Shown piece by piece: positions 1 through 41,915 of a DNA stretch of 64,000 bases. The notes below the pieces were generated by a model that saw only the letters and a list, made by a program, of their open reading frames with translations, was not told where the DNA came from and ran no database searches. Origin of the DNA: Hormiphora californensis (lineage: Eukaryota > Animalia > Ctenophora); assembly GCA_020137815.1 (NCBI GenBank), contig CM035350.1, positions 2,976,001-3,040,000 on the forward strand, read 5' to 3'. Within the stretch, counting starts at the first letter, position 1; every line of letters begins with the position of its first letter. Both the position numbers and the translations under genes were made by a program.

Positions 1-94
1 GGTCAGAGCATTGGCCTGACAGATAATAATAAGCCTTGTTAAACTCTAAAACTTGGGGAATTTCTAGATTAGTGGAGGCCGGGCTGTCTATAAA

Positions 95-188
95 ATGAGG
101 AGTAAGGACATATTTGTAGTAGCAGCCTTCATCTTTGCTATCCTAACCGTTATATTGTACTATGCGGTGACTAAACCGCACTTTAACG
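95..188 (+). CDS. Variable first coding exon V1 of KCNMB-like gene (N-terminus + TM1)
   Basis: ATG at 95 gives MRSKDIFVVAAFIFAILTVILYYAVTKPHFN-G, ending in phase-1 donor G|GTATG; paralogous to V2-V6. Confidence 0.8.
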
Positions 189-264
189 GTATGTTATAAA
201 GATCCTCTCTGTGTGCTGTGTAGTGAGTATGATCCTGATATGATTGTATTGTAGAATAATAACC

Positions 265-462
265 ACCTAGTTACACTTAGTGACACCTAGTGACACCTAG
301 TGATACCTAGTGACACCTTTTGACACCTAGTTACACTTAGTGACACCTAGTTACACCTAGTGATACCTAGTGACACCTAGTTACACCTAGTGATACCTAG
401 TTACACTTAGTGACACCTAGTGACACCTAGTAACACGTTTAATGACACCTAGTGACACCCAG
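265..462. repeat. 10-bp minisatellite (GTGACACCTA)n, imperfect
   Basis: About 20 visible tandem copies of g(t/g)(t/g)acacctag-like units. Confidence 0.9.
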
Positions 463-587
463 TGTAATATTAGTGGACGTGCCACCTGTCATTGTGGGTG
501 CTACCTACCTAGGTATACCTATTCAACAACTAACAAGTCATTGGTTATGCTACGTTGGTAGAGCCCGTGGATATTTTACGATCCATT

Positions 588-2515
588 GGGGGGGACGACA
601 TGTTAATTGTTAATAAATCACCTCTTTTTTTCGATTTTGTTAATTAACGTTAATTAACAAAATTAACAAAGTTAACAAATCAGCAAAGACTGTTCTTATT
701 GGTTGATAATACGACTTTAACTGGTTTAATTTTATAGTTTAATGACTTTTCTAACACTTGGAAAGCGCAGTTCTTTGAGTAAAATCTCTTTCGATCCAGT
801 TATCAACTTTGGAGGAACGGAAATCTTCCCCAGTGAATGTAGTGGAGCAGATGGGAAAACCTTGGGAATACTCTTGGACCACAATCTTAATCTTGAACGA
901 CAGGTTAACAATGTGAGGAAACAGTGTGGGCTGATACTACGGAATCTTTGGCAGTTACACAGATGTTTTGATATTCAAACGAAGATAATGTTGGTGAAAC
1001 AATTGATTATATCGAGGATTGATTACAGTAATATTCTGTACTGTGGACTTCCGGCCCGAGTTCTTGGTGGGCTCCAGAAAACACTAAACTCCTGTGTACG
1101 CTTTATATTCAACATCCATGGGCATCAAGAGGATTACTCGGAATACTTCAGGCAGTGTCATATTTTACCCATCTCCTACAGACTGGACTTCAAAGCCTGT
1201 CTAATCGCTTATAAGATAGTCTATGGAACGGCGCCAGGTTACCTCCAGGAAATGGTTCCTCTTGATAAAAGCTGGGGAGTCTCCAGGACAACAAGGATGA
1301 CTAGTGTTATTGATCCTTACAGATTAAAACACCCCAAGATGACCAGTATCAACGCCAATTCTAAATTGAGACGTAGGAGACTATCAGTATTTCTGCCTGC
1401 TATTTGGAATGAGCTACCCCTTGAGTTAAGGTCGATCCCCAACGTTGATACCTTTAAAGCTCGCCTGAAAACACATCTCTTCGTTGGTGCATTTGGAGTG
1501 GGTGATGGGGAACCCATGGCTGAGTTGTAATGTTTGTTGTAGTTGTGGGGCCTGCGGGCAATCAGTGTCATCCTCTCTCTAGTCATGTTATTAAATCACT
1601 ATCTGGTATCCTTTTTTGAGCAGGTGTGAGTATAGCGTGTTTAAAATTATATCTACAGGTTTATGGGACCAGTTATTCCCCCAGTTTGATAAGTCCAGTT
1701 AATTTGGTTTTCCATATATTGTCTTTTTCAACCAGAATTGTTCGTGTGCGATATTTTTACTCTAGGATATACCGCTCTGATGACTCGTCGGAACATCGCC
1801 AATATTTTGACATGTTTCCGTCGGGTATGGGCGGTATATAAGCGCGGAATATTATTATTATTATTACATATATACACAAACAAGGCCTCTTCCGATAACC
1901 AAAGTCCGACATACATGTTTTTTGGCTCAAAATCGATAAAAATCCAAAAGTTACAAATATTTCAATTTAGCGGATAAAATCTCACTTTAACGTGATTTTT
2001 TCATTGATAATCGATTCTTTGAACGAAAGAATATGATGTACAACGTTTCTGTCGGAAAAAGAAACAAAATATTTCCAAAATCAATTTTTGGTCAAAAATT
2101 GAAAATTTGCTTCGCTACAAATCCTTGTGTTTTTTTTAGAAAAATTGATTTTTGGGATATTTTTGTTTTATGGTAAATTCATGAGTCTTATTTAGTTTTT
2201 AGGGTTAAAAAAAGTGGATTAGGGTCAATTGACTTCAATTGCGGTTTAGTTTGGCTAGTTTTTATTAAAATTTACACAGAGGAACAAATCGCTGTAAAAA
2301 AGCCGTAGTAGAGGTAGTGGTGGTGTGTAAATCGTGCAACATCTTTGCTCGCATAACAAGTGTTAAATACCAAAAACACGTGCTAAAGGTGATTTAGATG
2401 GCATAAATGGCATTTGTTAACGTTTGTTAACTTTTTGTTAATTTTGTTAATAAATCACCTGTTTTCTCGATGTTAATATTAACAAAGTTAACAAAATTAA
2501 CATGTCGCACCCCCC
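588..2515. mobile_element. Non-autonomous TIR DNA transposon with poly-G termini and 8-bp TSD; hosts the LINE fragment
   Basis: GGGGGGGACGACATGTTAA ... TTAACATGTCGCACCCCCC; TSD GATCCATT at 580-587 and 2516-2523. Confidence 0.75.
742..1866 (+). mobile_element. 5'-truncated L2/CR1-group LINE (RT C-terminal part, 3' UTR, (ATT)n tail)
   Basis: ORF 742-1530 has LGILLD...LIISRIDYSNILYCGLP...LPISYRLDFK...WNELPLELR, typical of the L2/Crack/Daphne ORF2 end; 3' stem ATACCGC/GCGGTAT followed by ATT repeats. Confidence 0.85.
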
Positions 2516-2589
2516 GATCCATTTTTTTATTGTAATACAATTTGTATACCGGTTTAAAATGTTTTCCCGATAAAAACGTCTTCAGTGAC

Positions 2590-2695
2590 ATGTCTGATGA
2601 GATTGAAACGCTCAAGGCGGTGTTTTGCCTTCAACTTCTAGCGGCTATATCCACTGTCTTATGTGGCATCTACATAACACGCCCTAATGTTCATG
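2590..2695 (+). CDS. Variable first coding exon V2 of KCNMB-like gene
   Basis: MSDEIETLKAVFCLQLLAAISTVLCGIYITRPNVH-G|GTAAT, phase 1; CTTCAG lies 4 nt before the ATG. Confidence 0.8.
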
Positions 2696-2945
2696 GTAAT
2701 AATTGGGTTTTGATTCGTGAAGTTTTGATTCTTTTGATTTTGGTTTAGTGGGTATGTAAACTGCTCTGATTATCCCTCAGTGGCAGCATCAGCTATGCTG
2801 TCCCTGGGGGATCTGGGCAGGATACAAGTCTGGATAGTATTCTTGTTATTATTATCTTAGATAATATCTAATTGATTGACTTTTGAGATTGAAAATCACT
2901 GGTGATGATTTATTGATTTGAATCGGTGAAAAAGCCAACAAACTA

Positions 2946-3117
2946 CAGTCGGACCCCGATTTAACGGCCCCCGATTTAGCGGCACCCCGATTTAACGGCA
3001 GCATAATCTTCCCCCGATATGGGAAATTAACATTATTTGACCCCGATTTAGCGGACACCCCGATTTAACGGACAAAATCCTTTCCCCCGAGGGTGCCGTT
3101 AAATCGGGGTCTGACTG
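2946..3117. mobile_element. MITE, Tc1/mariner-pogo type (CAGTCGGACCCCGATTT TIR, TA TSD)
   Basis: TA-CAGTCGGACCCCGATTTAACGGC...GCCGTTAAATCGGGGTCTGACTG-TA; relatives near 23207-23295 and at 61475-61604. Confidence 0.85.
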
Positions 3118-3523
3118 TAGTACTACCAGAAGTCCTGGTGTAGCACAATACAGTTGTCTACATCACGCACTTTTCACACAGCACCTGGACTCAGTTTATA
3201 TTGGGACTGTTCTCTCTCTATCCCTTTGTGCTGTGTAGCAAGTTAGAGAATCATGAGACGTGTAGTAGTTTTGCTAAATTGTGGGATCTTTTTGTTCCGT
3301 GTTCTCGTACTAACCAGGTATAGCGGAGGGGTTGTCAGGCACTGACTGTAAGTTGTAACATCTCGCACGCTGCTCGATTTACATTGTCCTCTTTTTTCCA
3401 AAAATGTCCTCATGGAACTGAGTAGAGGCCAGGTGTAATACGAAACAACGGAGGGGAGGTCTCATTTGAAACTAGTACAGCTGCTCTACACCGATTTTTC
3501 ATAATAGTCACACCTTTAGAAAT

Positions 3524-3641
3524 ATGACTTGTGATGGTGATATATGGTATAAGACGCTCGAAGGGGTGTTTTACCTTTTATTTGCAGCGGCTTTAAGCGT
3601 AATCTTATGTGGCATCTACATAACACGGCCTAATGTTCACG
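3524..3641 (+). CDS. Variable first coding exon V3 of KCNMB-like gene
   Basis: MTCDGDIWYKTLEGVFYLLFAAALSVILCGIYITRPNVH-G|GTAAT; downstream intron nearly identical to that of V2. Confidence 0.8.
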
Positions 3642-3967
3642 GTAATTAATTGGGTTTTGATTCGTGAAGTTTTGATATTCTTTTGATTTATGAGATTGAA
3701 CATATCACTGATCATGATGATTAATTATTGATTTGAATATGTGAAACTTCTGTGTGTCCATGTGTGTCTGTGTGTGTTATTGTATTAGTCCCACATGGTG
3801 TTGCACAATAGTTGTCTAGCTCACACACACTTTTCACAACGCATCATGAGAGGGCCTGCAGTGATTATATTTGATCTGCCAACTGCACAATTAGAAACAG
3901 TATCACACTATTGATTGTTTCAGTATTCATATCGACTGTTCTCTTGTTTTGTTGTTACACGGTTGTC

Positions 3968-4064
3968 ATGACAAAGTTGAATGATTTTGTTTTGTTCATT
4001 GGATTCTGTTCCGTTGTTGCCATTATATGTGGAGGATATCTGGTCCTTCAGCCTAACATTCATG
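3968..4064 (+). CDS. Variable first coding exon V4 of KCNMB-like gene
   Basis: MTKLNDFVLFIGFCSVVAIICGGYLVLQPNIH-G|GTAAA, phase 1. Confidence 0.75.
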
Positions 4065-4435
4065 GTAAATATACCCACACTAGACAGTAGACAATACGTG
4101 ATTGACTTGGTAGATTTACTTATGATATTGATACGAATAGATTGTAGATCCAGGAGTGCCGATTGTCTTTTTTACTTCGTTATTACAGGTATACAATTTT
4201 GAGGGGGGCTTACACACAAGGGCATATACATTAATATCTCAACGGTGTACATACTACATCATAACAAACTAAAGCTAAAGTGTATAGCTACAGTTACTTT
4301 TCAGACACTGACTGTACAGTGTACACTGCGAAGCTGAAGAGGACGGTCTTATAATGAGACAAACAGTTACACAATATACCTTTACGCAATACAGTGGGAC
4401 TACTTGTATACACTGTCTCTATTTATAGCTGGGAG

Positions 4436-7400
4436 TTAATAAATCGGGGTGTTCCGAGAGACTGATCCTAAACTGAGCCAATACACACAGCTAGAGCGGA
4501 GAGTCACCGTCATGGTGTGCACTATCACCAGGGTCACAATATACAGTCGATGGGGGTTGACTATAACTCTCAACGCATCTAGCCTCTGCCAACAAGTCAT
4601 GGTGTTGCACTGCACGGAACCCTCCAACTCCGATTCCTTGTTTAACTAGCCGTACAGCAAGGATCTCGGCTGGATTCGTCTCAGACTAGGCACATATTCC
4701 AACACGATAGTAGCAGGAGAGATCAACACTTATACCAAGCACACAGGGTAGAAACAATCCTACCTAGAGAAAAATGTTACCTTATCCAGAACACAAGGAT
4801 TGTTTCTACCCTGTGTGCTTGGTATAAGTGTTGATCTCTCCTGCTACTATCGTGTTGGAATATGTGCCTAGTCTGAGACGAATCCAGCCGAGATCCTTGC
4901 TGTACGGCTAGTTAAACAAGGAATCGGAGTTGGAGGGTTCCGTGCAGTGCAACACCATGACTTGTTGGCAGAGGCTAGATGCGTTGAGAGTTATAGTCAA
5001 CCCCCATCGACTGTATATTGTGACCCTGGTGATAGTGCACACCATGACGGTGACTCTCCGCTCTAGCTGTGTGTATTGGCTCAGTTTAGGATCAGTCTCT
5101 CGGAACACCCCGATTTATCAATCAAGTATCAATAACATTGTACTTCTCCGAGTTGACTGTGTTAAATACCAATTATAATGGGGCCTACTGATGTCCGATA
5201 CACACTACCTAGAGAAAAATGTTATCTTATCCAGAACACAAGGATTGTTTCTACCCTGTGTGCTTGGTATAAGTGTTGATCTCTCCTGCTACTATCGTGT
5301 TGGAATATGTGCCTAGTCTGAGACGAATCCAGCCGAGATCCTTGCTGTACGGCTAGTTAAACAAGGAATCGGAGTTGGAGGGTTCCGTGCAGTGCAACAC
5401 CATGACATGTTGGCAGAGGCTAGATGCGTTGAGAGTTATAGTCAACCCCCATCGACTGTATATTGTGACCCTGGTGATAGTGCACACCATGACGGTGACT
5501 CTCCGCTCTAGCTGTGTGTATTGGCTCAGTTTAGGATCAGTCTCTCGGAACACCCCGATTTATCAATCAAGTATCAATAACATTGTACTTCTCCGAGTTG
5601 ACTGTGTTAAATACCAATTATAATGGGGCCTACTGATGTCCGATACACACTACCTAGAGAAAAATGTTATCTTATCCAGAACACAAGGATTGTTTCTACC
5701 CTGTGTGCTTGGTATAAGTGTTGATCTCTCCTGCTACTATCGTGTTGGAATATGTGCCTAGTCTGAGACGAATCCAGCCGAGATCCTTGCTGTACGGCTA
5801 GTTAAACAAGGAATCGGAGTTGGAGGGTTCCGTGCAGTGCAACACCATGACATGTTGGCAGAGGCTAGATGCGTTGAGAGTTATAGTCAACCCCCATCGA
5901 CTGTATATTGTGACCCTGGTGATAGTGCACACCATGACGGTGACTCTCCGCTCTAGCTGTGTGTATTGGCTCAGTTTAGGATCAGTCTCTCGGAACACCC
6001 CGATTTATCAATCAAGTATCAATAACATTGTACTTCTCCGAGTTGACTGTGTTAAATACCAATTATAATGGGGCCTACTGATGTCCGATACACACTACCT
6101 AGAGAAAAATGTTATCTTATCCAGAACACAAGGATTGTTTCTACCCTGTGTGCTTGGTATAAGTGTTGATCTCTCCTGCTACTATCGTGTTGGAATATGT
6201 GCCTAGTCTGAGACGAATCCAGCCGAGATCCTTGCTGTACGGCTAGTTAAACAAGGAATCGGAGTTGGAGGGTTCCGTGCAGTGCAACACCATGACATTG
6301 TTGGCAGAGGCTAGATGCGTTGAGAGTTATAGTCAACCCCCATCGACTGTATATTGTGACCCTGGTGATAGTGCACACCATGACGGTGACTCTCCGCTCT
6401 AGCTGTGTGTATTGGCTCAGTTTAGGATCAGTCTCTCGGAACACCCCGATTTATCAATCAAGTATCAATAACATTGTACTTCCCCGAGTTGACTGTGTTA
6501 AATACCAATTATAATGGGGCCTACTGATGTCCGATACACACTACCTAGAGAAAAATGTTACCTTATCCAGAACACAAGGATTGTTTCTACCCTGTGTGCT
6601 TGGTATAAGTGTTGATCTCTCCTGCTACTATCGTGTTGGAATATGTGCCTAGTCTGAGACGAATCCAGCCGAGATCCTTGCTGTACGGCTAGTTAAACAA
6701 GGAATCGGAGTTGGAGGGTTCCGTGCAGTGCAACACCATGACTTGTTGGCAGAGGCTAGATGCGTTGAGAGTTATAGTCAACCCCCATCGACTGTATATT
6801 GTGACCCTGGTGATAGTGCACACCATGACGGTGACTCTCCGCTCTAGCTGTGTGTATTGGCTCAGTTTAGGATCAGTCTCTCGGAACACCCCGATTTATC
6901 AATCAAGTATCAATAACATTGTACTTCCCCGAGTTGACTGTGTTAAATACCAATTATAATGGGGCCTACTGATGTCCGATACACACTACCTAGAGAAAAA
7001 TGTTACCTTATCCAGAACACAAGGATTGTTTCTACCCTGTGTGCTTGGTATAAGTGTTGATCTCTCCTGCTACTATCGTGTTGGAATATGTGCCTAGTCT
7101 GAGACGAATCCAGCCGAGATCCTTGCTGTACGGCTAGTTAAACAAGGAATCGGAGTTGGAGGGTTCCGTGCAGTGCAACACCATGACTTGTTGGCAGAGG
7201 CTAGATGCGTTGAGAGTTATAGTCAACCCCCATCGACTGTATATTGTGACCCTGGTGATAGTGCACACCATGACGGTGACTCTCCGCTCTAGCTGTGTGT
7301 ATTGGCTCAGTTTAGGATCAGTCTCTCGGAACACCCCGATTTATCAATCAAGTATCAATAACATTGTACTTCCCCGAGTTGACTGTGTTAAATACCAATT

Positions 7401-10352
7401 ATAATGGGGCCTACTGATGTCCGATACACACTACCTAGAGAAAAATGTTACCTTATCCAGAACACAAGGATTGTTTCTACCCTGTGTGCTTGGTATAAGT
7501 GTTGATCTCTCCTGCTACTATCGTGTTGGAATATGTGCCTAGTCTGAGACGAATCCAGCCGAGATCCTTGCTGTACGGCTAGTTAAACAAGGAATCGGAG
7601 TTGGAGGGTTCCGTGCAGTGCAACACCATGACTTGTTGGCAGAGGCTAGATGCGTTGAGAGTTATAGTCAACCCCCATCGACTGTATATTGTGACCCTGG
7701 TGATAGTGCACACCATGACGGTGACTCTCCGCTCTAGCTGTGTGTATTGGCTCAGTTTAGGATCAGTCTCTCGGAACACCCCGATTTATCAATCAAGTAT
7801 CAATAACATTGTACTTCCCCGAGTTGACTGTGTTAAATACCAATTATAATGGGGCCTACTGATGTCCGATACACACTACCTAGAGAAAAATGTTACCTTA
7901 TCCAGAACACAAGGATTGTTTCTACCCTGTGTGCTTGGTATAAGTGTTGATCTCTCCTGCTACTATCGTGTTGGAATATGTGCCTAGTCTGAGACGAATC
8001 CAGCCGAGATCCTTGCTGTACGGCTAGTTAAACAAGGAATCGGAGTTGGAGGGTTCCGTGCAGTGCAACACCATGACTTGTTGGCAGAGGCTAGATGCGT
8101 TGAGAGTTATAGTCAACCCCCATCGACTGTATATTGTGACCCTGGTGATAGTGCACACCATGACGGTGACTCTCCGCTCTAGCTGTGTGTATTGGCTCAG
8201 TTTAGGATCAGTCTCTCGGAACACCCCGATTTATCAATCAAGTATCAATAACATTGTACTTCCCCGAGTTGACTGTGTTAAATACCAATTATAATGGGGC
8301 CTACTGATGTCCGATACACACTACCTAGAGAAAAATGTTACCTTATCCAGAACACAAGGATTGTTTCTACCCTGTGTGCTTGGTATAAGTGTTGATCTCT
8401 CCTGCTACTATCGTGTTGGAATATGTGCCTAGTCTGAGACGAATCCAGCCGAGATCCTTGCTGTACGGCTAGTTAAACAAGGAATCGGAGTTGGAGGGTT
8501 CCGTGCAGTGCAACACCATGACTTGTTGGCAGAGGCTAGATGCGTTGAGAGTTATAGTCAACCCCCATCGACTGTATATTGTGACCCTGGTGATAGTGCA
8601 CACCATGACGGTGACTCTCCGCTCTAGCTGTGTGTATTGGCTCAGTTTAGGATCAGTCTCTCGGAACACCCCGATTTACCAATCAAGTATCAATAACATT
8701 GTACTTCCCCGAGTTGACTGTGTTAAATACCAATTATAATGGGGCCTACTGATGTCCGATACACACTACCTAGAGAAAAATGTTACCTTATCCAGAACAC
8801 AAGGATTGTTTCTACCCTGTGTGCTTGGTATAAGTGTTGATCTCTCCTGCTACTATCGTGTTGGAATATGTGCCTAGTCTGAGACGAATCCAGCCGAGAT
8901 CCTTGCTGTACGGCTAGTTAAACAAGGAATCGGAGTTGGAGGGTTCCGTGCAGTGCAACACCATGACTTGTTGGCAGAGGCTAGATGCGTTGAGAGTTAT
9001 AGTCAACCCCCATCGACTGTATATTGTGACCCTGGTGATAGTGCACACCATGACGGTGACTCTCCGCTCTAGCTGTGTGTATTGGCTCAGTTTAGGATCA
9101 GTCTCTCGGAACACCCCGATTTATCAATCAAGTATCAATAACATTGTACTTCCCCGAGTTGACTGTGTTAAATACCAATTATAATGGGGCCTACTGATGT
9201 CCGATACACACTACCTAGAGAAAAATGTTACCTTATCCAGAACACAAGGATTGTTTCTACCCTGTGTGCTTGGTATAAGTGTTGATCTCTCCTGCTACTA
9301 TCGTGTTGGAATATGTGCCTAGTCTGAGACGAATCCAGCCGAGATCCTTGCTGTACGGCTAGTTAAACAAGGAATCGGAGTTGGAGGGTTCCGTGCAGTG
9401 CAACACCATGACTTGTTGGCAGAGGCTAGATGCGTTGAGAGTTATAGTCAACCCCCATCGACTGTATATTGTGACCCTGGTGATAGTGCACACCATGACG
9501 GTGACTCTCCGCTCTAGCTGTGTGTATTGGCTCAGTTTAGGATCAGTCTCTCGGAACACCCCGATTTATCAATCAAGTATCAATAACATTGTACTTCCCC
9601 GAGTTGACTGTGTTAAATACCAATTATAATGGGGCCTACTGATGTCCGATACACACTACCTAGAGAAAAATGTTACCTTATCCAGAACACAAGGATTGTT
9701 TCTACCCTGTGTGCTTGGTATAAGTGTTGATCTCTCCTGCTACTATCGTGTTGGAATATGTGCCTAGTCTGAGACGAATCCAGCCGAGATCCTTGCTGTA
9801 CGGCTAGTTAAACAAGGAATCGGAGTTGGAGGGTTCCGTGCAGTGCAACACCATGACTTGTTGGCAGAGGCTAGATGCGTTGAGAGTTATAGTCAACCCC
9901 CATCGACTGTATATTGTGACCCTGGTGATAGTGCACACCATGACGGTGACTCTCCGCTCTAGCTGTGTGTATTGGCTCAGTTTAGGATCAGTCTCTCGGA
10001 ACACCCCGATTTATCAATCAAGTATCAATAACATTGTACTTCCCCGAGTTGACTGTGTTAAATACCAATTATAATGGGGCCTACTGATGTCCGATACACA
10101 CTACCTAGAGAAAAATGTTACCTTATCCAGAACACAAGGATTGTTTCTACCCTGTGTGCTTGGTATAAGTGTTGATCTCTCCTGCTACTATCGTGTTGGA
10201 ATATGTGCCTAGTCTGAGACGAATCCAGCCGAGATCCTTGCTGTACGGCTAGTTAAACAAGGAATCGGAGTTGGAGGGTTCCGTGCAGTGCAACACCATG
10301 ACTTGTTGGCAGAGGCTAGATGCGTTGAGAGTTATAGTCAACCCCCATCGAC
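4436..10352. mobile_element. TSD-flanked 445-bp tandem array (about 12.6 units) with an inverted partial unit at the left end; retrozyme-like insertion
   Basis: Unit period 445 (4761, 5206, ...); inverted copy at about 4436-4760; direct repeat TATAGCTGGGAG at 4424-4435 and 10353-10364. Confidence 0.85.
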
Positions 10353-10487
10353 TATAGCTGGGAGTCATACAATAACATTATAACAGCTCTGTCACCTTTT
10401 GTTAAAAGATCTGTCGTAGCTCTGTTCTTTCTATTCATACTGCTGAGAAACTAGTCTCTGTTCTGGCAAGCCTTGTATATGTAGGAT

Positions 10488-10596
10488 ATGCTAAGTTTGC
10501 TGAGAGAATTAAAACCATTCTCACCATCTCTCGCTGTCATATCTTTGGTTGTTATTATTCTTTGTGGTATCTTCATAACAAAACCACATTTAAACG
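10488..10596 (+). CDS. Variable first coding exon V5 of KCNMB-like gene
   Basis: MLSLLRELKPFSPSLAVISLVVIILCGIFITKPHLN-G|GTATG, phase 1; TGTAG lies 3 nt before the ATG. Confidence 0.8.
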
Positions 10597-11150
10597 GTAT
10601 GTTACCCCTCTCTAAACATGTGTATAATAGAAAGCATTATTGGTTTGTTGAGTTGAGGGAACCACACACGCCACACCGGGCCATGCAACTGCCAACTTGT
10701 CGTTTCACATTTTCTGTCCTCTCCGTGCACTTGTCTGGCGTTACCAGACCCCTTTTTGATTAGATGCGTTTTGGCATTGCGCTTAGATCGCGGGTCGGCG
10801 CCATGCGGAGGCCGCGATATTACAGCCAGAGCCTGACGAGCTCGTTTGGTGCTACAGGGACATTCAGTCGAACTCGGCCCGCGGTTCGGAGAGGAAAGAC
10901 ACGGTTCGACCTTCTTAAAACAAAAAAAGACCTGCTGGTCAACTTGAACTGTTCGTACTGTCTCCGCCCGGTATATTAATAATCGCAGCGGCCAGCAATT
11001 AGCCCCGACCACACGACGTCATTGTTGTTGGTGTGTGTGATAGAATAACAAAGATCGTAAACCACCATCATAGTTGACATTAACGTGGTTTCGTTGATGC
11101 CTTACTCCAACTGTAGGGTTAGAACAGTTTGATATATTGGTCACGATATA

Positions 11151-11247
11151 ATGGGTTTAGAAGATGAAGATTATTTTTATATCGGTGTTATTGCAGCCAT
11201 TGTCACCATTTTATGTGGCGTTTACATCACCAAACCCCATTTACACG
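11151..11247 (+). CDS. Variable first coding exon V6 of KCNMB-like gene
   Basis: MGLEDEDYFYIGVIAAIVTILCGVYITKPHLH-G|GTATG, phase 1. Confidence 0.85.
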
Positions 11248-11672
11248 GTATGTTACCATGGCTGCAGATTTAGTATATACAATGTATTTAGCAGCAGCTA
11301 ATTGGTTCTCAGTCCTGTTTCTAAACAAACTTTGATAATATTTGACTTGTGCAGTGATTCTATAGTTTGTGTGAACATATCTTAATCTACTCCGAAAATG
11401 ATTTTACGAGTGACAGTTTCTCAGATTGTCTGCTGAACTTTGCGAGTAACCAAATGATAACCCCTATCTCCCGATCACCCCCCCCCCATGACCTGTATGG
11501 CGGCGCCATACCCCATTTGATTCTCAGTGCGCTCAGATGGGTCGCGGCGCCAGACAGCCCATGACCACCACTACAATGCTGAACCCCTTACCCCTCAAAT
11601 CCCATGGAATATACTAATCATCATTCATCGCCCATATTCTACCATTGTTGCTCTAATATCACCCCCTCTCAG

Positions 11673-14600
11673 GTATAAAGTTTGTAGAGGGTGAGTGTAG
11701 GGTAACTGCAGCTGCCCAAACTCGGGTTGGTGACTTTCCAAGATGCTCGTGTGGAAAAAACTGCAACCGAGATTACCCCTGTCTTTCTATCCAGGTTAGT
11801 GTGGCATTTGATTTGGGACCCATTACCACTGCAGTAACCCATTCGTATTGTTCATACTCTCTTTTTCATTTTATTCAAAAATGAAAGCCTCACGAGGACA
11901 CAAGATAGTTTGAATTAGCCTTGATATATGAACAATGGGCCTACCTGCAGGGTGAATACAGATCATTGGTAGAGACGTCACAGGGAAACTTTAGTGGGTA
12001 TCTCTACCATAACTACTGGGCGAAGCAGCACGATTGTGTTTACAAGGTTGAAACATGTGGCAGCTTCGATGACAATATTGGATATGTGTATGACTTCTTC
12101 GCTTCAAACATTGCAGTTTATGTGAGTAAGATCATAGCACTGGCAAGTGCCCCGGGCCCAAAAGGGGGGTGTGGGGGCACAGCCCCCACCATAAACGGGG
12201 GTGTGGGGGCAGAGCCCCCACCTTAGAAATACCCTCTAACTCAAAAAACAAAAGAGAGAGCACACGCAACACTTCTACACACAAGCGCGTGAAAACCTGC
12301 CAGTGCTACTATATACCATTGCAGATTTCGGGGTCGATAGTGTTGGGTTGCTGTGGTTCCTCCTGAAACCCCTTTAGGGATGCCCAGTCTACTCCTGGTC
12401 AGTTCCCGTCCTCATTGCGCCGGTTGTGGTGATCAATGTATTTATGGATGGACGCAGAACAATACACAGGGTTTCTTGAAACGTTTTCGCTAGATCACAT
12501 AAACATCCAGCATCATCAGCTAAAAGAGAAAGATGTTAAACATGAGATACAAAAACCCATCACGCTAAAAAACTGCTCAAAAATGGTCAAGCTAAACAAT
12601 TTTTGCACATTTTTCAACTCATTTTACAACCCGCAGCCACTCAAAACAGGGACTAGCGCGCGTTTTGCGCGCCAGAGAACGCAACTGTGTCGCGGCGCCC
12701 TCCGCCCAGCACTGCAAAACAGTACATGAATTGAAAAATGTGCAAAATTGTATAAAATGTATAAAATCCCTCATCTCACTACCACCATCCTATTAAGGCC
12801 AAAAACTTTAGTATTTAACTGTTCTATATATCTCCCCTCGAATCTATCCAACTCTACCGCTGGCACCTGCCTTATGATCCCTACATTAAAGAGTTTTAAA
12901 TCGAAATTGTTTTTGTGTCTGAGGAAGCAGTGGAGACTCAAGGCACTTTTCTCAAAACTGAGATTAGTGTCTATTTTGAACTTGTTCCTGTGTCCGTTAA
13001 ATCTGATGTGGAGAGGTGTCGTGGTTTGCCCAATGTAAGTAGTTTCCCGTCCACCATTCTCCAAACATATCCTACACTGAGCTATGTATATGACATTGGC
13101 TGTTTTGCAGTTCAACGTCATATCCAAATCAACCGATTCTCCGTTGGTCTGGAACCTCGTGCTACTCCCCATCAATTCGCAGGTTTTGCACCCTTTCGAT
13201 CCACATTTCTGGCTGTCTACCGGTACCCTCTCTTCATGTCCTTCACTCAGTTTCCTATTCCGTACGACAGTGTTGCCTATAGAGGGGTGTTTTCTAAGGG
13301 CGAACACAGTCTGGACGTCTCCAGCAGCTGACTTGATGTCTTCATCCATTGCTCTAACGAACGATTTCAGATTGTCAATACCTTTGAAGTATGAGGTCAC
13401 AAACATGAGTTTCTTGGTGACCGGGGTACTGTTCTCGCTCGGTGTTGGGTTCTCTTGGGCAAGAACTCGTTCCAAAGCTCGAGGTTGCAGAGAATTGAGT
13501 GCCTCCATCTTGTGCCCGCTTTTCTCAAGATCTCTTTTAAGGTCCTCAACATCCCTGTCTCTTGTTTCCGGCAGTGAGTTTCTCTTCATAATCCGGATTA
13601 GCTGACTCACTGCCACTCATTTGAAGACATTCTCGTGGTGGTAGGAGTCTGTCTTCAGGTATAGTCTAGCATCGGTGGGCTTCCGGTAGAGTTCGTATTG
13701 TAGTCCCGTGCGATCTAGGTAGAGAGAGACGTCAAGGTAGTTAACCCTGTTTCCATACTGCTGGTCTCCAAACTGGATCCCATACTCAGCTGTTTTTAAA
13801 TTCAGCTGGTTGATGAAGGTCGTTAATTGTCTCTCTGTTCCGACCCACACTCCGATGATGTCGTCAATAAATCGCCTCCATAACCTGATCTGTGAAGGGA
13901 TTGGGTCTCGTATCGCATGAAAGATCAACCAATGAAGGGTGATGTCCGCTAGTTGTCGCGAGATACAGTTTCCAGTGGGTATACCCTTCACGCTGGTGAA
14001 AACCTTCCCCTCAAACGTGATAAAAGACTTTTCAAGTATGAGTGTGATGAAATTCCTCAACGTAGTCCTCCTGTCACGTGCAACCTTGCAGGTTACAAAA
14101 GCATGCTCCAGTGCCTGCAAAGCTACGTCCGGTCGGATGCTGGGGTATAGTGACACCACGTCCAAAGTGAACAATTGGGTGCCTCCCCCTTTGAAAATGG
14201 CCTCCCCGCTTTTGCTGAGTGAGTCCAGCTGTTGTAGGAGATCATCTGTGTCCAAGATATACTCGTGTCCACAGTAGCTCTTGCTTATCTCCGTGATGTA
14301 TGGCGATACCCATTTTTCAATCCTATAGAGTGGGCCAGCTCTGGTGGCGTGAACCAGCCTAGCTGGGGGTATTGTCTTCTCATCGATTTGCTGTTGCGTC
14401 AGCTTGTGTATTTTGAAGAGGGGGTAGGTATAGGGTACTACAGGCCTAAATACGGGGGACTGCTTCAAATTGTTGTTCTTGTTCAGTCCTGTGATGCGTG
14501 TTTTGTCCTCCTCAGTAATCCTACCGCTCTCCAATTCATTCAAGACTGTCGCTTGTACATGTTTATTGGTGTCTGTCATCCTTTCTTCAATGGACTGGTT

Positions 14601-17600
14601 TACCTCGCAAAAGTTGTCACGGCAGTTTACTGAAGTTCGGATGGCTTGTAGAGCGTCCTCATAGTTGAGGATGAGGGTGGCCCCTCCCTTGTCAGCTCTG
14701 GTCACGAAGATTTGTTCCTCTTCTATTTTCCTCCTGACCCACTTCTTTCCGTCTGCTTCCTTACGGGTTAGGTTGCTCTTGGGTTTCGGTGGGTTCAGCC
14801 CATCAATGTGGCTTAATAAACGACTTTTTATGTCCTCCACGGTGGCGTTATGGTAGTCGTTTGGTCCTCTTCTGGATGGGATTCTGAGGTCCTGGTGTCG
14901 GTCGTCTCGTAAGGGCTCGTTTTCATCCCCGGTTTTCTCGTGGAAGAAGGCCTTCCACTCCAACTTTCGTAGGTATTCCTTTGCATCGAATTTCAGGTCA
15001 TACTTGTTGAAGTTACGTACTTCTACAAAGTTGAGGCCTTTTGCTAGGTATAGGAAAGCTTCATCGGGGATTTCTAGCGAAGAGAGGTTGCGGACCAAGG
15101 TGGTTTTTATTTCCTGGACCCTGGCTGTTAGTTCTTGTTGCTTCCTCAACTTCTTTCTGGTACGGTAGTCCCTTCTTCTTTTGGTTTTATGGGCTTTCGA
15201 TGCCCTTCTCCGAGTCTGTCTCCGCTCCCCTCTCTTGGTTAACTTAGGAGCTGCTGATTTTGGTGGTTTACTCATGTGGAAAGCGATCTTCCGATCTCTC
15301 TTTACCTTCAGCTTCTGTTCCAGATCATTGTTGGGGGCTGGTTCACAATTTCGGGTGTTTGGAACGAGTTCTTGCCCAAGAGAACCCAACACCGAGCGAG
15401 AACAGTACCCCGGTCACCAAGAAACTCATGTTTGTGACCTCATACTTCAAAGGTATTGACAATCTGAAATCGTTCGTTAGAGCAATGGATGAAGACATCA
15501 AGTCAGCTGCTGGAGACGTCCAGACTGTGTTCGCCCTTAGAAAACACCCCTCTATAGGCAACACTGTCGTACGGAATAGGAAACTGAGTGAAGGACATGA
15601 AGAGAGGGTACCGGTAGACAGCCAGAAATGTGGATCGAAAGGGTGCAAAACCTGCGAATTGATGGGGAGTAGCACGAGGTTCCAGACCAACGGAGAATCG
15701 GTTGATTTGGATATGACGTTGAACTGCAAAACAGCCAATGTCATATACATAGCTCAGTGTAGGATATGTTTGGAGAATGGTGGACGGGAAACTACTTACA
15801 TTGGGCAAACCACGACACCTCTCCACATCAGATTTAACGGACACAGGAACAAGTTCAAAATAGACACTAATCTCAGTTTTGAGAAAAGTGCCTTGAGTCT
15901 CCACTGCTTCCTCAGACACAAAAACAATTTCGATTTAAAACTCTTTAATGTAGGGATCATAAGGCAGGTGCCAGCGGTAGAGTTGGATAGATTCGAGGGG
16001 AGATATATAGAACAGTTAAATACTAAAGTTTTTGGCCTTAATAGGATGGTGGTAGTGAGATGAGGGATTTTATACATTTTATACAATTTTGCACATTTTT
16101 CAATTCATGTACTGTTTTGCAGTGCTGGGCGGAGGGCGCCGCGACACAGTTGCGTTCTCTGGCGCGCAAAACGCGCGCTAGTCCCTGTTTTGAGTGGCTG
16201 CGGGTTGTAAAATGAGTTGAAAAATGTGCAAAAATTGTTTAGCTTGACCATTTTTGAGCAGTTTTTTAGCGTGATGGGTTTTTGTATCTCATGTTTAACA
16301 TCTTTCTCTTTTAGCTGATGATGCTGGATGTTTATGTGATCTAGCGAAAACGTTTCAAGAAACCCTGTGTATTGTTCTGCGTCCATCCATAAATACACAG
16401 ATTTCGGGGTTTTTGATGCTCTAAAAAAGCATGTTCCAGATGAAGTAGAGACCTGAAATTTTGTACTCTGAGGGCCCTCATATAGGAGAAGAGGCATGCA
16501 AATTTTCAGAACGATCGGATGTAAGGTAAAAATTTGCCAGAGGGGTCCCAAAATGCAAAAATGTAAGGAGGGGGAGGAGAGGGGAGGGGAGGGGAGGGGA
16601 GGGGGAGGGGGAGGACGCTTTTTTATCTTTGAGTGTTCTCCTAAACCACAAATAGTAGAGACTTGCCGTTTGGAACAGTGGTTCCTTACATCATTGCGCT
16701 CGGTAATAGCTGTGTAAGAACTTCAAAATCGCCATAGTTCATTAATTATTCATTAATTAGTCATTAAATATCCATTTAAACCATGGTCGCGATATGGCAC
16801 GACTCGAAGGTCATAGAGACTTGACACCGGTCTTATTCGACGCGGAATGGTCGATTTATGGGGGGTCTTAGTCGGGACAAAAATCTCTATCTCGCACCGT
16901 TAAGCCGTTATTTGCATATTTATACACCTATTCACGATTTTATGCATACTTTCAATATTTTCACTTCGGCTGGTTCTAGAACGTTTTCATGGACATATTT
17001 CGACGCAAAATAGTCGATTTATGGGGGGTCGTCCCCCGGACTAAAAGTCGTATCTCGCACCGTTAAGCCGTTATTTGCATATTTATGCACCGATTCATGA
17101 TTTAATGCATATTCTGAATATTTCCAGTTCGGCTGGTCTTAAAACGTTTTCATAGACAAATTTCGACGCAAAATAGTCGATTTATGGGGGGTCTTACTCG
17201 GAACAAAAATCTCTATCTCGCACCGTTAAGCCGTTATTTGCATATTTATGCACCGATTCATGATTTAATGCATATTCTGAATATTTCCAGTTCGGCTGGT
17301 CTTAAAACGTTTTCATGGACAAATTTCGACGAAAAATAGTCGATTTATGGGGGGTCTTACTCGGAACAAAAATCTCTATCTCGCACCGTTAAGCCGTTAT
17401 TTGCATATTTATGCACCGATTCATGATTTAATGCATATTCTTGATATTTCCACTTCGGCTGGTCCTAGAACGTTTTCATGGACATATTCCGGCGCAGAAT
17501 AGTCGATTTATGGGGGGTCGTCCCCCTGACAAAAAGTCGTATCTCTCACCGTTTAGTCGTTATTCGCATATTTATGAACTATTCAAGTTCGAAAATATGC

Positions 17601-18605
17601 AGAAATCAGAAAAAATAGCTTTTTCTATTTGATGCGCTGAATCACGTGGGCAACTTTTCCGAGCCCTCCGGGGTCGGGAATTTGCTCTAATTGAGTATAA
17701 TTGGGTCTAATTGGCCTTAATTGCTCAGTTGGGGCACTTTCCCGACCTAGGCGGGCTTTGAGGAGTAGCTTGCGTGATTCGGCGTATCAAAATTAGTCGG
17801 AGGAGTGCCTTCACATGGGTGTCTGTCGTTTCCAGGTGGGGGGTTGTAGGTTGGGTCAATTGGACCCTATTGTGCTCGGTTGGGACGCTTTCCCGGCATC
17901 TGAGGGATTGGAGGAGTTGCTTGCGTGATTCAGCGTATCGAGAATAGTCGGGTACGGCGATTTTCGCCTTTGTATGAGTGGGTTTCGGTTTGTTGGCCGG
18001 AGTCTGCCGCGTGTGTGGCGGATTCTGGCCAAGGTTTTTTTAGAGTCTTGGCCGGGATCTGCCACTCGCGTGGCGGATTCCGGCCAATAATTTTAGCGAC
18101 ATGTTTATTTTTATTTTGAAATGAAATTTTCATAGAATTTCAAACGGGGGTATTTCACTTGATTGAGGGAACTCTTGGCCGGAATCTGCCACCGTAGTAT
18201 ATCTTCAATTAGGAGTGAGTTTTTTCCAAAGTGTGTAAGAATATAAGGATCTTTTTTGCGTTAGGTATACCGCTCTGAAGCTCGTCAGTGTCAGATATAG
18301 TTTGACTTGTCTGGCCCTGTCGTGTCTGTGGCGGTATACAAAACTTGATATTATTATTATTATTATTAACACCAAAAAGAACAGAAATTAAGTCCAAAAA
18401 CCAATTAAATAAATTAGTTTGGATGCCCGGGCCCATGTGGTGTCACGGGGGTAACACCTTTAGGCTACTGTCATAAATGATTGATATCGAGAGAGATAAA
18501 GGCAAAAGAAATTAGGATAGAAAGAGTGAGATATAATCAAGAAAGACGGAGAGATAAATAAGAGGATCAGAGAGAGAAAAAGAGAGATATAGTGAAAGAA
18601 ACAGT

Positions 18606-18645
<40 letters not shown>

Positions 18646-20270
18646 GTGTGAGAGAGAGTGAGAGAGAGATAGATAGAGAATAGAGATAGAAAGATTGAAG
18701 GATAACAATTAACAATTAACGAGATATGCCGTTAATTATGGCAGTAGCCTAAAGGTGTTACCCCCGTGACACCACATGGGCCCGGGCATCCAAACTAATT
18801 TATTTAATTGGTTTTTGGACTTAATTATAGGTATATCGGGTCTTGGTTACTGTAGGTCGTAGGATACTGAGTGATATATCTCCCGACCAATCTAGCGAAT
18901 CTTTATCTGGGCCGGGATGTGTGTTCATACGGGCTCTTCACTCTTGTACCCCCCTCCCAAAACTTCACAAAACCCCTACCTGCATACTAAATTCCTCGGG
19001 GGGGGGGGGGGGGGCGGTTGAAGTTTTTGAAGTTTGAAGTTTTCCACCCTACTTTTTGAGTTTTTGAAGTTTTTGAAGTTGACTTCAAAAACTTCAAAAA
19101 CTTCAAAAACTCTAAACTACTTTTATATGCTATCAGTGACTTTTATTACACTTGTTTAGGTTAGTTTCATGCTTAATACATATTGTGGCAAAGTTATCCG
19201 GCCTTGTCTGCCCTTTTTCTACCACAAATTAGGATATTTACAATGATTCCTAGCCATGAAATCCAAGGCACAATTTGGTGTAAAAAATTTAATTTTTTTG
19301 TAAAAACAAATTTAACTTTCATTCTATAACTCAAAAAATTGCCTAGAAAATGCTAAGAAAGTGTTTAAAAATTATGATGTAAATTTTCAAAAATTTTTTT
19401 GGGGCCACACGCTTTTTGCGAGTTTCACAAAATGCAAATTTTTTATGTAGGGAGTAGTGAAAAAACTATGGTCACTAAAATCATCAGCGGCCTCGAGTTA
19501 GTGGGGGTACGTGCCAAAATGAAGTCTCCACCTCATCTAATTCGAGGGATAATGGGATATTTTCATAATTTTGTGTGTGCTCATGACTTATTTTTGGGCT
19601 AGACCAGTTTTAATGGTTTCTGAGTGTCTATAGGATTTTTAAAGGGGTGTATCTTGTTCGGAATATGCAAGTTTATATAAGAGTTATGAAGCAAAATAGG
19701 ACCTATCTCCAACGGTTTAGGAGATATGAGTTTTTGAAGTTTTTGAAGTTTTTGAAGTTTTCCACCCTAAGTTTCTGTTTGAAGTTTTTGAAGTCGACTT
19801 CAAAAACTTCAAAAACTTCAGCCGGCCCCCCCCCCCAATTCCTCTTGTTTGCAGTTGCCCGAGGAGGAAAAGTTAAAGTATCCTACCTTTACCAGTGGTC
19901 CAGTTTACTATAACACTACCACATGGTTCAACTGCTCCGGATATGCGAAGGAGGAAGCAATGTACCAGGAGAACAATGTAAGTGTAGTACATGTTAGATG
20001 TTAGATGTTACATAAACCAAGATGTTACATGTTACATAAACCAAACCATTAAACCAGACTAGGACGGGAATATATGACAGGGAGTTGACCCCTTCCCAAG
20101 TGTTTCTTGTTGTCTCTCCCCACACAACAGTATGCTTCAGTACCCTATCCCCACACAACAATATATGTTTTCAGTACTCTCTATGGAAAGGGCTGACAGC
20201 AGTCTTAGTACCAGGAGTCGTGTTCGCCATCTGTTTTTTGATACTTTTATTCCAATTCATGTGCAAGTAA
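11673..20270 (+). CDS. Constant exons of a Ca-activated K+ (BK) channel beta-subunit-like protein (CaKB family): 11673-11794, 11951-12121, 19855-19977, 20175-20270
   Basis: Phase-compatible GT-AG exons read GIKFVEGECRV...PRCSCGKNCNRDYPCLSIQ / GEY...HDCVYKVETC...AVY / LPE...WFNCSGY...NN / YSLWKGLTAVLVPGVVFAICFLILLFQFMCK*. Eight loop Cys, a CxCGxxC...YPCL motif and two-TM topology of about 205 aa match KCNMB proteins. Confidence 0.8.
12472..12526 (-). ncRNA. Type I minimal hammerhead ribozyme motif in the Penelope 3' region
   Basis: Reverse complement of the motif at 16308-16362. Confidence 0.7.
12771..15357 (-). pseudogene. Penelope RT-EN ORF interrupted by one in-frame TGA (13617-13619)
   Basis: The 591-aa and 281-aa ORFs are in the same frame: ...HHENVFK*VAVSQLIR... 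Confidence 0.85.
16308..16362 (+). ncRNA. Type I minimal hammerhead ribozyme motif (inverted Penelope copy)
   Basis: CTGATGA (16315-16321), stem II GCTGGAT/ATCTAGC, GAAA, palindromic AACGTT stem III, imperfect stem I; hammerheads are a known feature of PLE termini. Confidence 0.7.
16830..17600. repeat. 163-bp subrepeat array (5 copies) inside a larger non-autonomous element (about 12140-18195, possibly Helentron/DINE-like) that the Penelope interrupts
   Basis: TATCTC(G/T)CACCGTT at 16888, 17051, 17214, 17377, 17540; GGGGGCA(C/G)AGCCCCC hairpins near 12170-12222. Confidence 0.65.
18205..18368 (+). mobile_element. Short 3' remnant of an L2-like LINE
   Basis: GTATACCGCTCTGA...GCGGTATAC stem plus (ATT)n tail, the same architecture as at about 1770-1866. 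Confidence 0.55.
18386..18826. mobile_element. MITE with about 85-bp TIRs and internal GA microsatellite
   Basis: AATTAAGTCCAAAAACC...TAGGCTACTG is inverted at the other end. Confidence 0.8.
18998..19836. mobile_element. Non-autonomous TIR element with poly-G termini and 8-bp TSD
   Basis: G-run + CGGTTGAAGTTTTTGAAG ... CTTCAAAAACTTCAGCCGG + C-run; TSD AATTCCTC at 18990-18997 and 19837-19844. Confidence 0.8.
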
Positions 20271-20382: not shown

Positions 20383-20889
20383 TTATTGTCCAGCTTGAGC
20401 AGCTGCAATTTCTGCTTCATCCGCAGCAACTTGAGCCTCCACTGCTGCCACCTCGGCCTCTCCAGCCGCTGCCTCCGCTTCTGCAGCCGCTGCCTCAGCG
20501 TTAGCGGCTGCTACTTCAGCATCTAGTGCGGCATGTTCTGCGGCTGCGGCTGCTTCCTGTGCCTCCCCTGCAGCGAGGGCAGCCTGGGCAGCTGCATCCT
20601 CTGCTTCGCATGCAGCTAACACAACTTGTTCCTCCGCAACAGCAACAGCAACAGCCGCATCTTCCTCCTCCATAGCAACCTGCAACTCCGCAGCAGCCGC
20701 ATCAGCAACCTCTGCTGCTGATTCGGCCACATTCAGAGCACTGACAGCATCTGCCAGGGCTGCCTCAGTGAGGGCTTGGGAGGCAGCAGCCTCTGCTGCA
20801 GCGTTCTGGGCTTCTTTAGCAGCAGCCTCGGCTTCTGATGCCGCTACTTCAGCAGCTTCAACAGCCTTTTGAACCTCACAATCAGACAT
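20383..20889 (-). CDS. Intronless acidic Ala/Glu-rich helical protein, 168 aa
   Basis: Open frame MSDCEVQKAVEAAEVAA...AQAGQ* with varied Ala codons, so not a simple DNA repeat. Confidence 0.7.
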   Translation of the reverse strand: MSDCEVQKAVEAAEVAASEAEAAAKEAQNAAAEAAASQALTEAALADAVSALNVAESAAEVADAAAAELQVAMEEEDAAVAVAVAEEQVVLAACEAEDAAAQAALAAGEAQEAAAAAEHAALDAEVAAANAEAAAAEAEAAAGEAEVAAVEAQVAADEAEIAAAQAGQ

Positions 20890-21539
20890 GATGGAAACGA
20901 GAGAGAGAAGAAACAACACGGAGAATGATATAAGAGGGGGGAAGTGATCACCCCTTTGTATACAGTGTGATACACCCAGTCACGTGACTTGCTTACACAA
21001 TTAACCCCTCTCTCTCTTGTTAACACTGTGTCATCTTGCATCTAAAACGGGAATGAATGATGTTGTGAAGATCGAATTTTACATCGTGTAGAAAAGTAAA
21101 ACAATTCAATATTTTTGGGGGATAATTATCAGCCAATTCGAGATATAAATCACAGGCACACTAGCAACCCATCAAAATGAAATCTCAAACACAATCCCCC
21201 GGCTCTCCGAACAATGTCCCAAATACATCAAACATCTGATATAATAGGGGTGAGGGGAGGAGTTTGGCGGGGTAGCCTTTGTGAAATCCATCCTGGTCCC
21301 AGCGACCACTCGCACCTTCTACCCAAGATGCTCCCCCTCTCACTCAGCAGCAGACCTGGATTCATCGGCCGATGGTACGCAAAAAAAAGCGTAAAAATAT
21401 AAATAAATATCGCCCCATGACACACACTGTCCTTCAGTTTTACATGGTGCAACGATCCATTTTGCTAATGTGGTCTGTGTCCCGACCTGGGCCTCATATT
21501 TAGCGTTATCCCCCATCGCTCTGCCGTTGCTAGGGGTGA

Positions 21540-21689
21540 TTATTCTGCAGCAGCCTCCTCATCAGCGGCGGCTTCCTCCTCAGCAGCGGGTTCCTCATCA
21601 GCGGCGGCTTCCTCCTCGGCAGCCTCCTCTTGAGTTTCCTCGACAGTCTCCTGGACCTCCTCCTGTTGTACATTCTCGTTATCGGCCAT
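21540..21689 (-). CDS. Small acidic Glu/Ala-rich peptide, 49 aa
   Basis: ACCATGG start context; MADNENVQQEEVQETVEETQEEAAEEEAAADEE...*. Confidence 0.55.
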   Translation of the reverse strand: MADNENVQQEEVQETVEETQEEAAEEEAAADEEPAAEEEAAADEEAAAE

Positions 21690-22160
21690 GGTGCGGGTCT
21701 TCTTCTTCTCTCTCTCGGGCAAACAAACTCAAACTGGGTAAATTGTGAAGTGGTAAAGGGAGGGAGCTTGTGTGGAGAGATGTTGTGGTGGGGTGTGATC
21801 ATCAGGGGGGCTCACACAATCATGTGATCATACACCAGCAGGACGGAGAGAGGGAGATCAGGAGCAGGGGTCAGGGCGGTGTGATCGTGATATATCACAG
21901 ATCTGTATCATATGTAGTCAGAGCGATAACAAGAGGTGACAAAAGTGTAAGCCAAGCTATTCTTGTTGAGGAATAGGGGATCTGAAAATAACAGCGAGCA
22001 GGGTTTCAGTGTAGCTTGGCAAGGTTTGAGATGGACGTTATCTCGAAATAATAATTAATAATAATCAATAATAATAATTAATAATAATTAACTCCAAATG
22101 TACACCGACAAGATCTAATATGTGTACTCTGCAGCTGCTAATCTCACTCATTCTCTCACA

Positions 22161-24991: not shown

Positions 24992-25522
24992 TCCCTCCCT
25001 CTCTATCTTTTGTATGTCCCTGACCTCTGTTAGGCCGGTTGTCGAATGGGTTGGGTTGAGGTTTACCATATTAAATGTACCAGAACGCCCTATACCAAGT
25101 TAGGACCTAACATTTACCGCTTACCGATGTGAAAGCCACCCTTTCCATTTAGGATGTTTGTAAAAATGAAAAAAAAAACAGGATAAATTAGTAAAACTAC
25201 AATCCCAGAAGCAGTTGGAGGTGTTTACTATCATGATGGAGGAGCTTGAGGATATTCACTAAAATTATAGCTTTGACTTTACTCATAACTCCAGGTAAGG
25301 TCCGCCGGCTACCTCCCCCTGGCCCCTCCCCTACTCCTGGACAGTGGACGTCATCTTTGAATCACCCATTGATGTCTAATTGGCTTTCTTTTCTTCATGA
25401 GTCCTCCCTGTGTCGAACAGCTGGGAAGCAGAGCTGTCCCAACAAGGGCGCCACCCAACTACCATTTCTTTTCTTCGCTTCAATTACGTTTATCTATCTC
25501 TAGTCATGAATGTGCGTTTTGC

Positions 25523-36213: not shown

Positions 36214-41915
<5,702 letters not shown>

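Follow-up and report, generated by a model that had tools for sequence, protein, structure and literature searches.

Auxiliary subunits of the BK channel and gene clusters with variable first exons are the closest described systems to the locus reported here. In the structure of Slo1 with beta-4, the beta subunit binds the alpha subunit almost only via its two helices, and the first transmembrane helix (TM1) touches several alpha segments; most of the Slo1 contacts of human beta-4 are made by its N-terminal tail (N-tail) and TM1, and the N-tail, the N-loop and the inner part of TM1 carry the largest effects on gating kinetics (PMC6934384; papers given by PMC number are cited for the parts of their text that were available). 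In UGT1 and GCNT2 (PMC1885805) and in sDscam (PMC4835542), each variable first exon has its own promoter. Here we describe a gene in a 64,000-nt stretch of the genome of the ctenophore Hormiphora californensis (GenBank assembly GCA_020137815.1, contig CM035350.1, forward-strand positions 2,976,001 to 3,040,000; hereafter the window, with coordinates counted from its first nucleotide). This gene consists of six tandem first-coding-exon cassettes (V1 to V6) and one constant region (exons C1 to C4) (Table 1). We propose, with a probability of roughly 0.6, that it belongs to the BK-beta/TipE family and that each mRNA joins one cassette to C1-C4. Using one cassette per mRNA would yield up to six subunits that differ in their N-tail and TM1.

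Exon Architecture of the Locus

An earlier note on this DNA, made from the sequence alone, described six exons, each with its own ATG, a hydrophobic helix and a phase-1 donor, and we find them all as described. The six cassettes are intact and open, each with an ATG, a tail of 7-15 residues, a hydrophobic helix and a phase-1 donor of the form G/GTA (the slash marks the end of the exon). The helices were said to end in the motif (I/V/L)(T/Q)xP(H/N)x(H/N), of which the proline, four residues from the cassette end, is the only residue invariant in all six; V4 (V-L-Q-P) does not fit the rest exactly. The donor context ACG/GTATGTTA is common to V1, V5 and V6, as the same note had reported. Reading through the donors gives tails of 2-55 amino acids (aa) that are mostly unrelated in length and sequence, which argues that the donor, and not a stop codon, is what is conserved. 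A scan for the cassette signature (Met, hydrophobic helix, Pro at -4, and phase-1 GT) returned six hits in positions 1-11700, and none on the remaining plus strand, on the minus strand, or in 100 Markov null sequences; its criteria were taken from the exons themselves, so that it is only partly independent. A looser scan added two weak hits, one from read-through of C2 (at 12170) and one at 52028, and no seventh cassette or cassette relic was found in the 64-kb window.

Downstream, C1 to C4 all have YAG acceptors, and C1 to C3 have GT donors. Each of the six cassettes reads in frame onto the single acceptor at 11673, as had been claimed, and continues through C2-C4 to the stop at 20270 without an internal stop. 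The joined proteins are 201-209 aa long with two hydrophobic peaks by hydropathy (6/6), and the V6 form has eight loop cysteines (residues 41, 57, 59, 63, 69, 102, 109, and 157) and four N-glycosylation sequons. That the constant region is single, another point of the earlier note, was borne out by tblastn and blastn, which found in the window no second or decayed constant region and no copy or relic of a constant exon between the cassettes. Exon anatomy, open frames, a single constant region and signs of selection on the cassettes (see below) are all present at the locus. The acceptor region of C4 (20120-20175) also carries a 24-nt tandem-like duplication, giving rise to an additional, out-of-frame AG 34 nt further upstream.

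In EukProt, a Pleurobrachia bachei gene model (P0006) contains a segment that matches C1 at 100% identity. The first 30 residues of the model correspond to V6 with small differences, and it has the same V6-C1 junction, followed by an unrelated tail. C2 gave four hits among the 50% protein representatives, one of them real (P0002) and three short and repeat-like, and no match in the 90% protein set; no database match was found for C3 or for C4. Metagenome scans returned one locus, a spurious one with stops flanking its short Cys motif, and no other.

Table 1. Coding exons of the cassette gene, in window coordinates.
Feature	Position	Strand	Description
V1 cassette (divergent member)	95..188	+	ATG, 7-aa tail, TM1, Pro motif, phase-1 donor; 94 nt from ATG to donor
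V2 cassette	2590..2695	+	106 nt from ATG to donor; CAG acceptor-like site 4 nt upstream of ATG
V3 cassette (closest paralogue of V2)	3524..3641	+	118 nt from ATG to donor; TAG acceptor-like site 4 nt upstream of ATG
V4 cassette (most divergent member)	3968..4064	+	97 nt from ATG to donor
V5 cassette	10488..10596	+	109 nt from ATG to donor; TAG 3 nt upstream of ATG
V6 cassette (closest to constant region)	11151..11247	+	97 nt; joined to C1 in the P. bachei gene model
Constant exon C1	11673..11794	+	Five loop cysteines aligned with human beta-4 C54, C68, C72, C76, and C84
Constant exon C2	11951..12121	+	Two loop cysteines; 89% identity to P0002 (protein with identical exon borders in another assembly)
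Constant exon C3	19855..19977	+	Inferred from splice signals and frame; eighth loop cysteine, N-glycosylation sequons
Constant exon C4	20175..20270	+	Inferred from splice signals and frame; second transmembrane helix (TM2) and stop

Family Membership and Candidate Partner Channel

By sequence comparison, the gene very probably belongs to the BK-beta/TipE family, a placement that we rate high because three methods (Pfam, PDB, and ESM Atlas) converge on the same small family in register. These lines are concordant and make membership likely, although individually they are weak or moderate and none is a threshold score; they support the BK-beta-like identity (KCNMB/TipE family) first suggested in the earlier note. 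The sole Pfam family matched by the P. bachei model was CaKB (PF03185), with residues 12-71 on profile positions 20-81 (E 0.15), in a scan that took the N-terminal 71 of about 202 residues in one piece. Both of its PDB hits (2/2; E 0.34 and 0.43) were beta-4-containing chains, with the TM1 proline and five cysteines aligned. In ESM Atlas its three best rows were CaKB clusters (0.92, 0.90, and 0.88), the first hit sharing 188 of 256 features. Further, the eight loop cysteines of the joined protein equal the number needed for the four disulfides of human beta-4 (PMC6934384).

Several results count against this placement. The Pfam score was 12.2 bits, with a gathering cut-off of 25.1; the PDB E-values were sub-threshold (about 0.34-0.49); the Pfam and PDB matches span TM1 and C1 only; the ESM Atlas recognition value of 2030 lies under the tool's mark of 2300, and the fourth Atlas row, just behind CaKB, is TipE (0.87). 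C2, C3, and C4, each searched alone, matched no KCNMB sequence. Similarly, none of ten single exons matched CaKB in Pfam, no KCNMB came up when C1, C3, C4, the V alignment, or the C2 alignment was searched against the PDB, and C1 alone gave nothing above 0.86 in ESM Atlas. In an AlphaFold model of V6 joined to C1, only a helix at residues 3-25 is confident, with residues 30-71 at a predicted local distance difference test score (pLDDT) of <50.

As to the channel that such a subunit would serve, the Slo1/BK alpha subunit is the partner we favour, as a reasonably probable one. By alignment, the cassette covers the part of beta-4 up to about residue 45, and because the N-tail and TM1 make most of the contacts and set the kinetics in beta-4, an exon swap would alter gating or the choice of partner while the loop and TM2 remain the same. 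In Mnemiopsis there are three KCNMA1 genes, and calcium-sensitive potassium currents have been described in muscle (PMC13749725). It is also conceivable, though rather unlikely, that the isoforms are made as proposed and the subunit is TipE/TEH-like, serving a sodium-type (Nav2) or other channel and not BK, in which case a TM1 swap might switch the partner. TipE is a homologue of Slo-beta, and which channels the two serve differs from lineage to lineage (PMC3240667), Nav2 genes are present in ctenophores (PMC6259924), TipE clusters appear in the Atlas search at 0.87, and the helices of V1 and V4 are strongly unlike the others, with 4-8 of 22 residues identical. However, CaKB or beta-4 is what the Pfam search, the PDB search and the top three rows of the Atlas search all gave, and the loop here is short, with as many cysteines as that of beta-4, whereas the loops of TipE, Teh3, and Teh4 are longer (PMC3240667).

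Kinship of the Cassettes and Signs of Selection

Shared blocks between V2 and V3, together with leave-one-out profiles, support the origin by cassette duplication that the earlier note had put forward. V2 and V3 have in common 136 nt at 84.6% identity across the donor, in agreement with the shared flanking intron described before, and a second intron block at 76.6%. With a DNA profile, each omitted cassette was the best non-training hit (V1 at E 8e-4, V4 at E 0.047, the others at <=2e-6). With a protein profile, V2, V3, V5, and V6 were recovered, and V1 and V4 fell outside the best eight rows. Paralogy had been claimed for all six; it stands for V2, V3, V5, and V6 on both profiles, while the homology of V1 and especially V4 to the other cassettes is only weakly indicated, by the DNA profile.

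Most cassettes are likely under selection, since synonymous sites between most of them are saturated while frame, donor and helix persist. In the comparison of synonymous and non-synonymous change among the cassettes that had been suggested earlier, the proportion of synonymous differences (pS) over the last 22 codons was 0.68-0.98 and that of non-synonymous differences (pN) 0.23-0.63 in 14 of the 15 pairs, and identity at codon positions 1, 2, and 3 was 0.45, 0.68, and 0.34, respectively. In a neutral simulation, donor, open frame, Pro and uncharged helix survived in 6.7% of lineages at d=0.25 and in 1% at d=0.5, and the survival of four lineages had a probability of about 2e-5 or less; at least four independent survivors are therefore unlikely without selection.

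The exceptional pair is V2/V3, in which pN (0.20) is about equal to pS (0.22) over the whole exon. Their 13 non-synonymous changes are all confined to codons 1-17 of the 29, which leaves the last 12 codons without any, and a stretch of about 47 intron bases is free of substitutions. Within the first 17 codons, first and second positions differ at 14 of 34 sites vs. 2 of 17 third positions (p 0.03, in a window chosen post hoc); the same test over all 29 codons gives p 0.20. This pattern, which we treat as a lead only, would fit diversifying selection on the inner TM1 or, equally well, a gene conversion tract over the donor. V2 and V3 also start at different ATGs of homologous sequence (2586-2607 and 3520-3553, respectively), and the indels between them leave both in frame.

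We consider it improbable that V6 alone (perhaps with V5) is used and that the upstream cassettes are orphan duplicates of exon 1, silent or rarely spliced. Such a reading can point to V6-C1 as the sole joined sequence found and to the distance of V1-V4 from C1 (7.6-11.5 kb), beyond a 5.6-kb tandem array. Nevertheless, ATG, frame, helix and donor are intact in all six cassettes despite saturated synonymous sites, an outcome with the very low neutral survival given above, and V2 and V3 use different ATGs, both in frame. The separate decayed paralogues that the earlier note had considered were also looked for, and the window holds neither a decayed cassette nor a second constant region.

Some observations speak against six working cassettes. 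The only joined sequence comes from a gene model, and models of this sort may be ab initio; V1 and V4 are missed by the protein profile; V2/V3 give no dN/dS proof of purifying selection; and the N-tails of V2, V3, and V6 are net acidic. The positive-inside rule disfavours an acidic N-tail on an N-in helix, so that the topology of these three forms carries a caveat.

How a Cassette May Be Chosen

If the gene works as proposed, at least four cassettes would be spliced to 11673, and the choice among them would be set by the position of the transcript 5' end. We lean slightly towards a start site in front of each cassette, with a spliced leader probably added at the AG just before the ATG. A more tentative alternative is that one long pre-mRNA is made and the trans-splice site on it is chosen, or that the cassettes share a non-coding first exon located upstream of the window. 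Trans-spliced leaders are found on ctenophore mRNAs, and at least 56% of Hormiphora long reads carry one (PMC8527503); the Hormiphora spliced-leader motif (PMC8527503) had no match in the window at 3 mismatches. A YAG lies within 4 nt of the ATG in three of the six cassettes, vs. a window rate of 0.12 (p 0.025). Over the 24 nt ending at the AG before the ATG, V2 and V3 share 15 positions, a level that none of 1887 other YAG 24-mers reaches; the likeness would fit acceptors for a non-coding leader.

Three points tell against the proposal: plain common descent may explain the upstream likeness of V2 and V3 just as it stands; a k-mer search of up to 300 nt upstream for a shared promoter motif returned only AT-rich words, including a 7-mer; and one AG, 44 nt upstream of V4, is in frame and open.

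The AG sites upstream of the ATGs, and the substitution-free intron bases common to V2 and V3, might instead suggest Dscam1-style internal exons, made mutually exclusive by RNA docking-selector pairing, or cassettes chained into a multi-helix protein. We regard this as very improbable. The nearest AG sites of the cassettes are in mixed phases, a cassette-to-cassette join runs into a frameshift or stop at 12 of the 13 AG sites within 60 nt of the ATGs, and none of the ten V1-V5 flanks pairs with the V6-C1 intron clearly above shuffles (best 3/40). Because chaining fails at nearly all sites and docking-selector pairing was not found, the cassettes behave as first coding exons. Least credible of all is that the cassettes, being short, N-terminal and hydrophobic, are cleavable signal peptides or stand-alone micropeptides, with their variation absent from the mature subunit, since the helix has about 21-23 residues (3-25 as predicted), both its 3' half and its Pro are conserved and can be aligned to TM1 of beta-4, and the read-through tails are unconserved.

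Implications

The segment delimited by the exon boundary, the N-tail and TM1, coincides almost exactly with the portion of a BK beta subunit that touches the pore-forming subunit and governs gating (PMC6934384). If the cassettes are expressed, they would amount to a natural TM1-swap series of six on an otherwise constant scaffold. If our reading of the locus is true, the KCNMB/TipE family would be present in the lineage that is sister to the other animals, which bears on whether the family ancestrally served BK or Nav, and the variable-first-exon layout would have arisen independently once more, in an animal with a nervous system that may itself be of separate origin. The locus would also make it possible to test if coding isoforms can be selected by spliced-leader trans-splicing. 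A bolder scenario, which we offer as speculative and on balance doubtful, is that this ctenophore BK-beta/TipE subunit dates the family to the animal base, and that six interchangeable TM1 modules, in a protocadherin-like array built by this lineage, are chosen per cell type by alternative spliced-leader trans-splicing, retuning BK gating or redirecting the subunit between channels, with the inner TM1 under positive selection.

Genomic Neighbourhood

The introns of the gene and its surroundings contain several repeats and open frames. Between V1 and V2, a 266-codon open frame (730-1530) has no Pfam hit, and presumably resembles the C-terminal part of the reverse transcriptase of a long interspersed nuclear element (LINE). 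Between V4 and V5 lie 12.6 copies of a 445-bp unit at 99% identity (4760-10353); the array stops about 135 nt short of the V5 ATG, and part of the unit recurs in inverted orientation at about 4542-4710. The C2-C3 intron holds a retroelement (12300-16400) with a minus-strand reverse transcriptase-like frame (13617-15413) and a nuclease-like frame present twice, inverted (12771-13616 on the minus strand and 15248-16063 on the plus strand), without a Pfam hit at E 0.01; from its motifs we take it to be Penelope-like.

Downstream on the minus strand are two single-exon-looking, Ala/Glu-rich open frames (20383-20900 and 21500-21690), the first of which is arranged tail to tail with the channel subunit gene, its end 113 nt from that gene's stop, and has no Pfam hit. 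A purine-rich 10-mer microsatellite of about 2 kb with a GC skew of 0.88 follows at 25500-27600, and two open frames at 51308-53020 have a signal-peptide-like start and several cysteines, again with no Pfam hit. An ankyrin-repeat protein (32537-33118), a protein kinase (38447-38755), a major facilitator superfamily (MFS) transporter (57415-57798), and a fidgetin-like AAA ATPase (61916-62479) would be useful synteny anchors among ctenophores; the sole database match of the last is a Bolinopsis microptera protein (51%).

Comparison With Known Systems

Human KCNMB3 (BK beta-3a-d), which likely belongs to the same family, similarly has four alternative first exons spliced onto shared downstream exons, but these code for cytoplasmic N-termini only (exon 1b contributing a single Met on the shared exon 2), and TM1 is constant (PMC2442174). 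In the Hormiphora gene, by contrast, each cassette carries TM1, the cassettes are duplicates of one exon, and the tails have 7-15 aa without a long inactivation ball. With human KCNMB4 (PDB 6V22) and the CaKB family (PF03185), the joined protein has in common two helices, eight loop cysteines, a Pro near the end of TM1 and N-glycosylation sequons, although the sequence match is sub-threshold and the linker of beta-4, at 120 aa, is shorter than the loop here. For KCNMB4, the available part of PMC6934384 describes no cassette array. The insect TipE/TEH1-4 cluster belongs to a homologous family and also owes its diversity to tandem duplication, but there whole genes were duplicated and serve the Nav channel Para, whereas here just the first coding exon was duplicated (PMC3240667).

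In layout, the locus resembles UGT1, GCNT2, protocadherin alpha/gamma, and chelicerate sDscam, all of which splice tandem, paralogous 5' cassettes of the same phase onto shared constant exons (PMC1885805, PMC4835542). The cassettes of those genes code for whole soluble or extracellular domains, and their promoters have been demonstrated (PMC1885805, PMC4835542). Instead, a cassette here is about 100 nt long and codes for a membrane helix, its promoter is putative, and the host trans-splices leaders. We found no description of a ctenophore BK beta subunit or of this cassette array in the literature searched, which was mostly without subscription papers or supplements, so that ion-channel tables of genome papers could list the gene. 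The locus is a known architecture, that of variable first exons, in a new family, a new lineage and a new molecular role.

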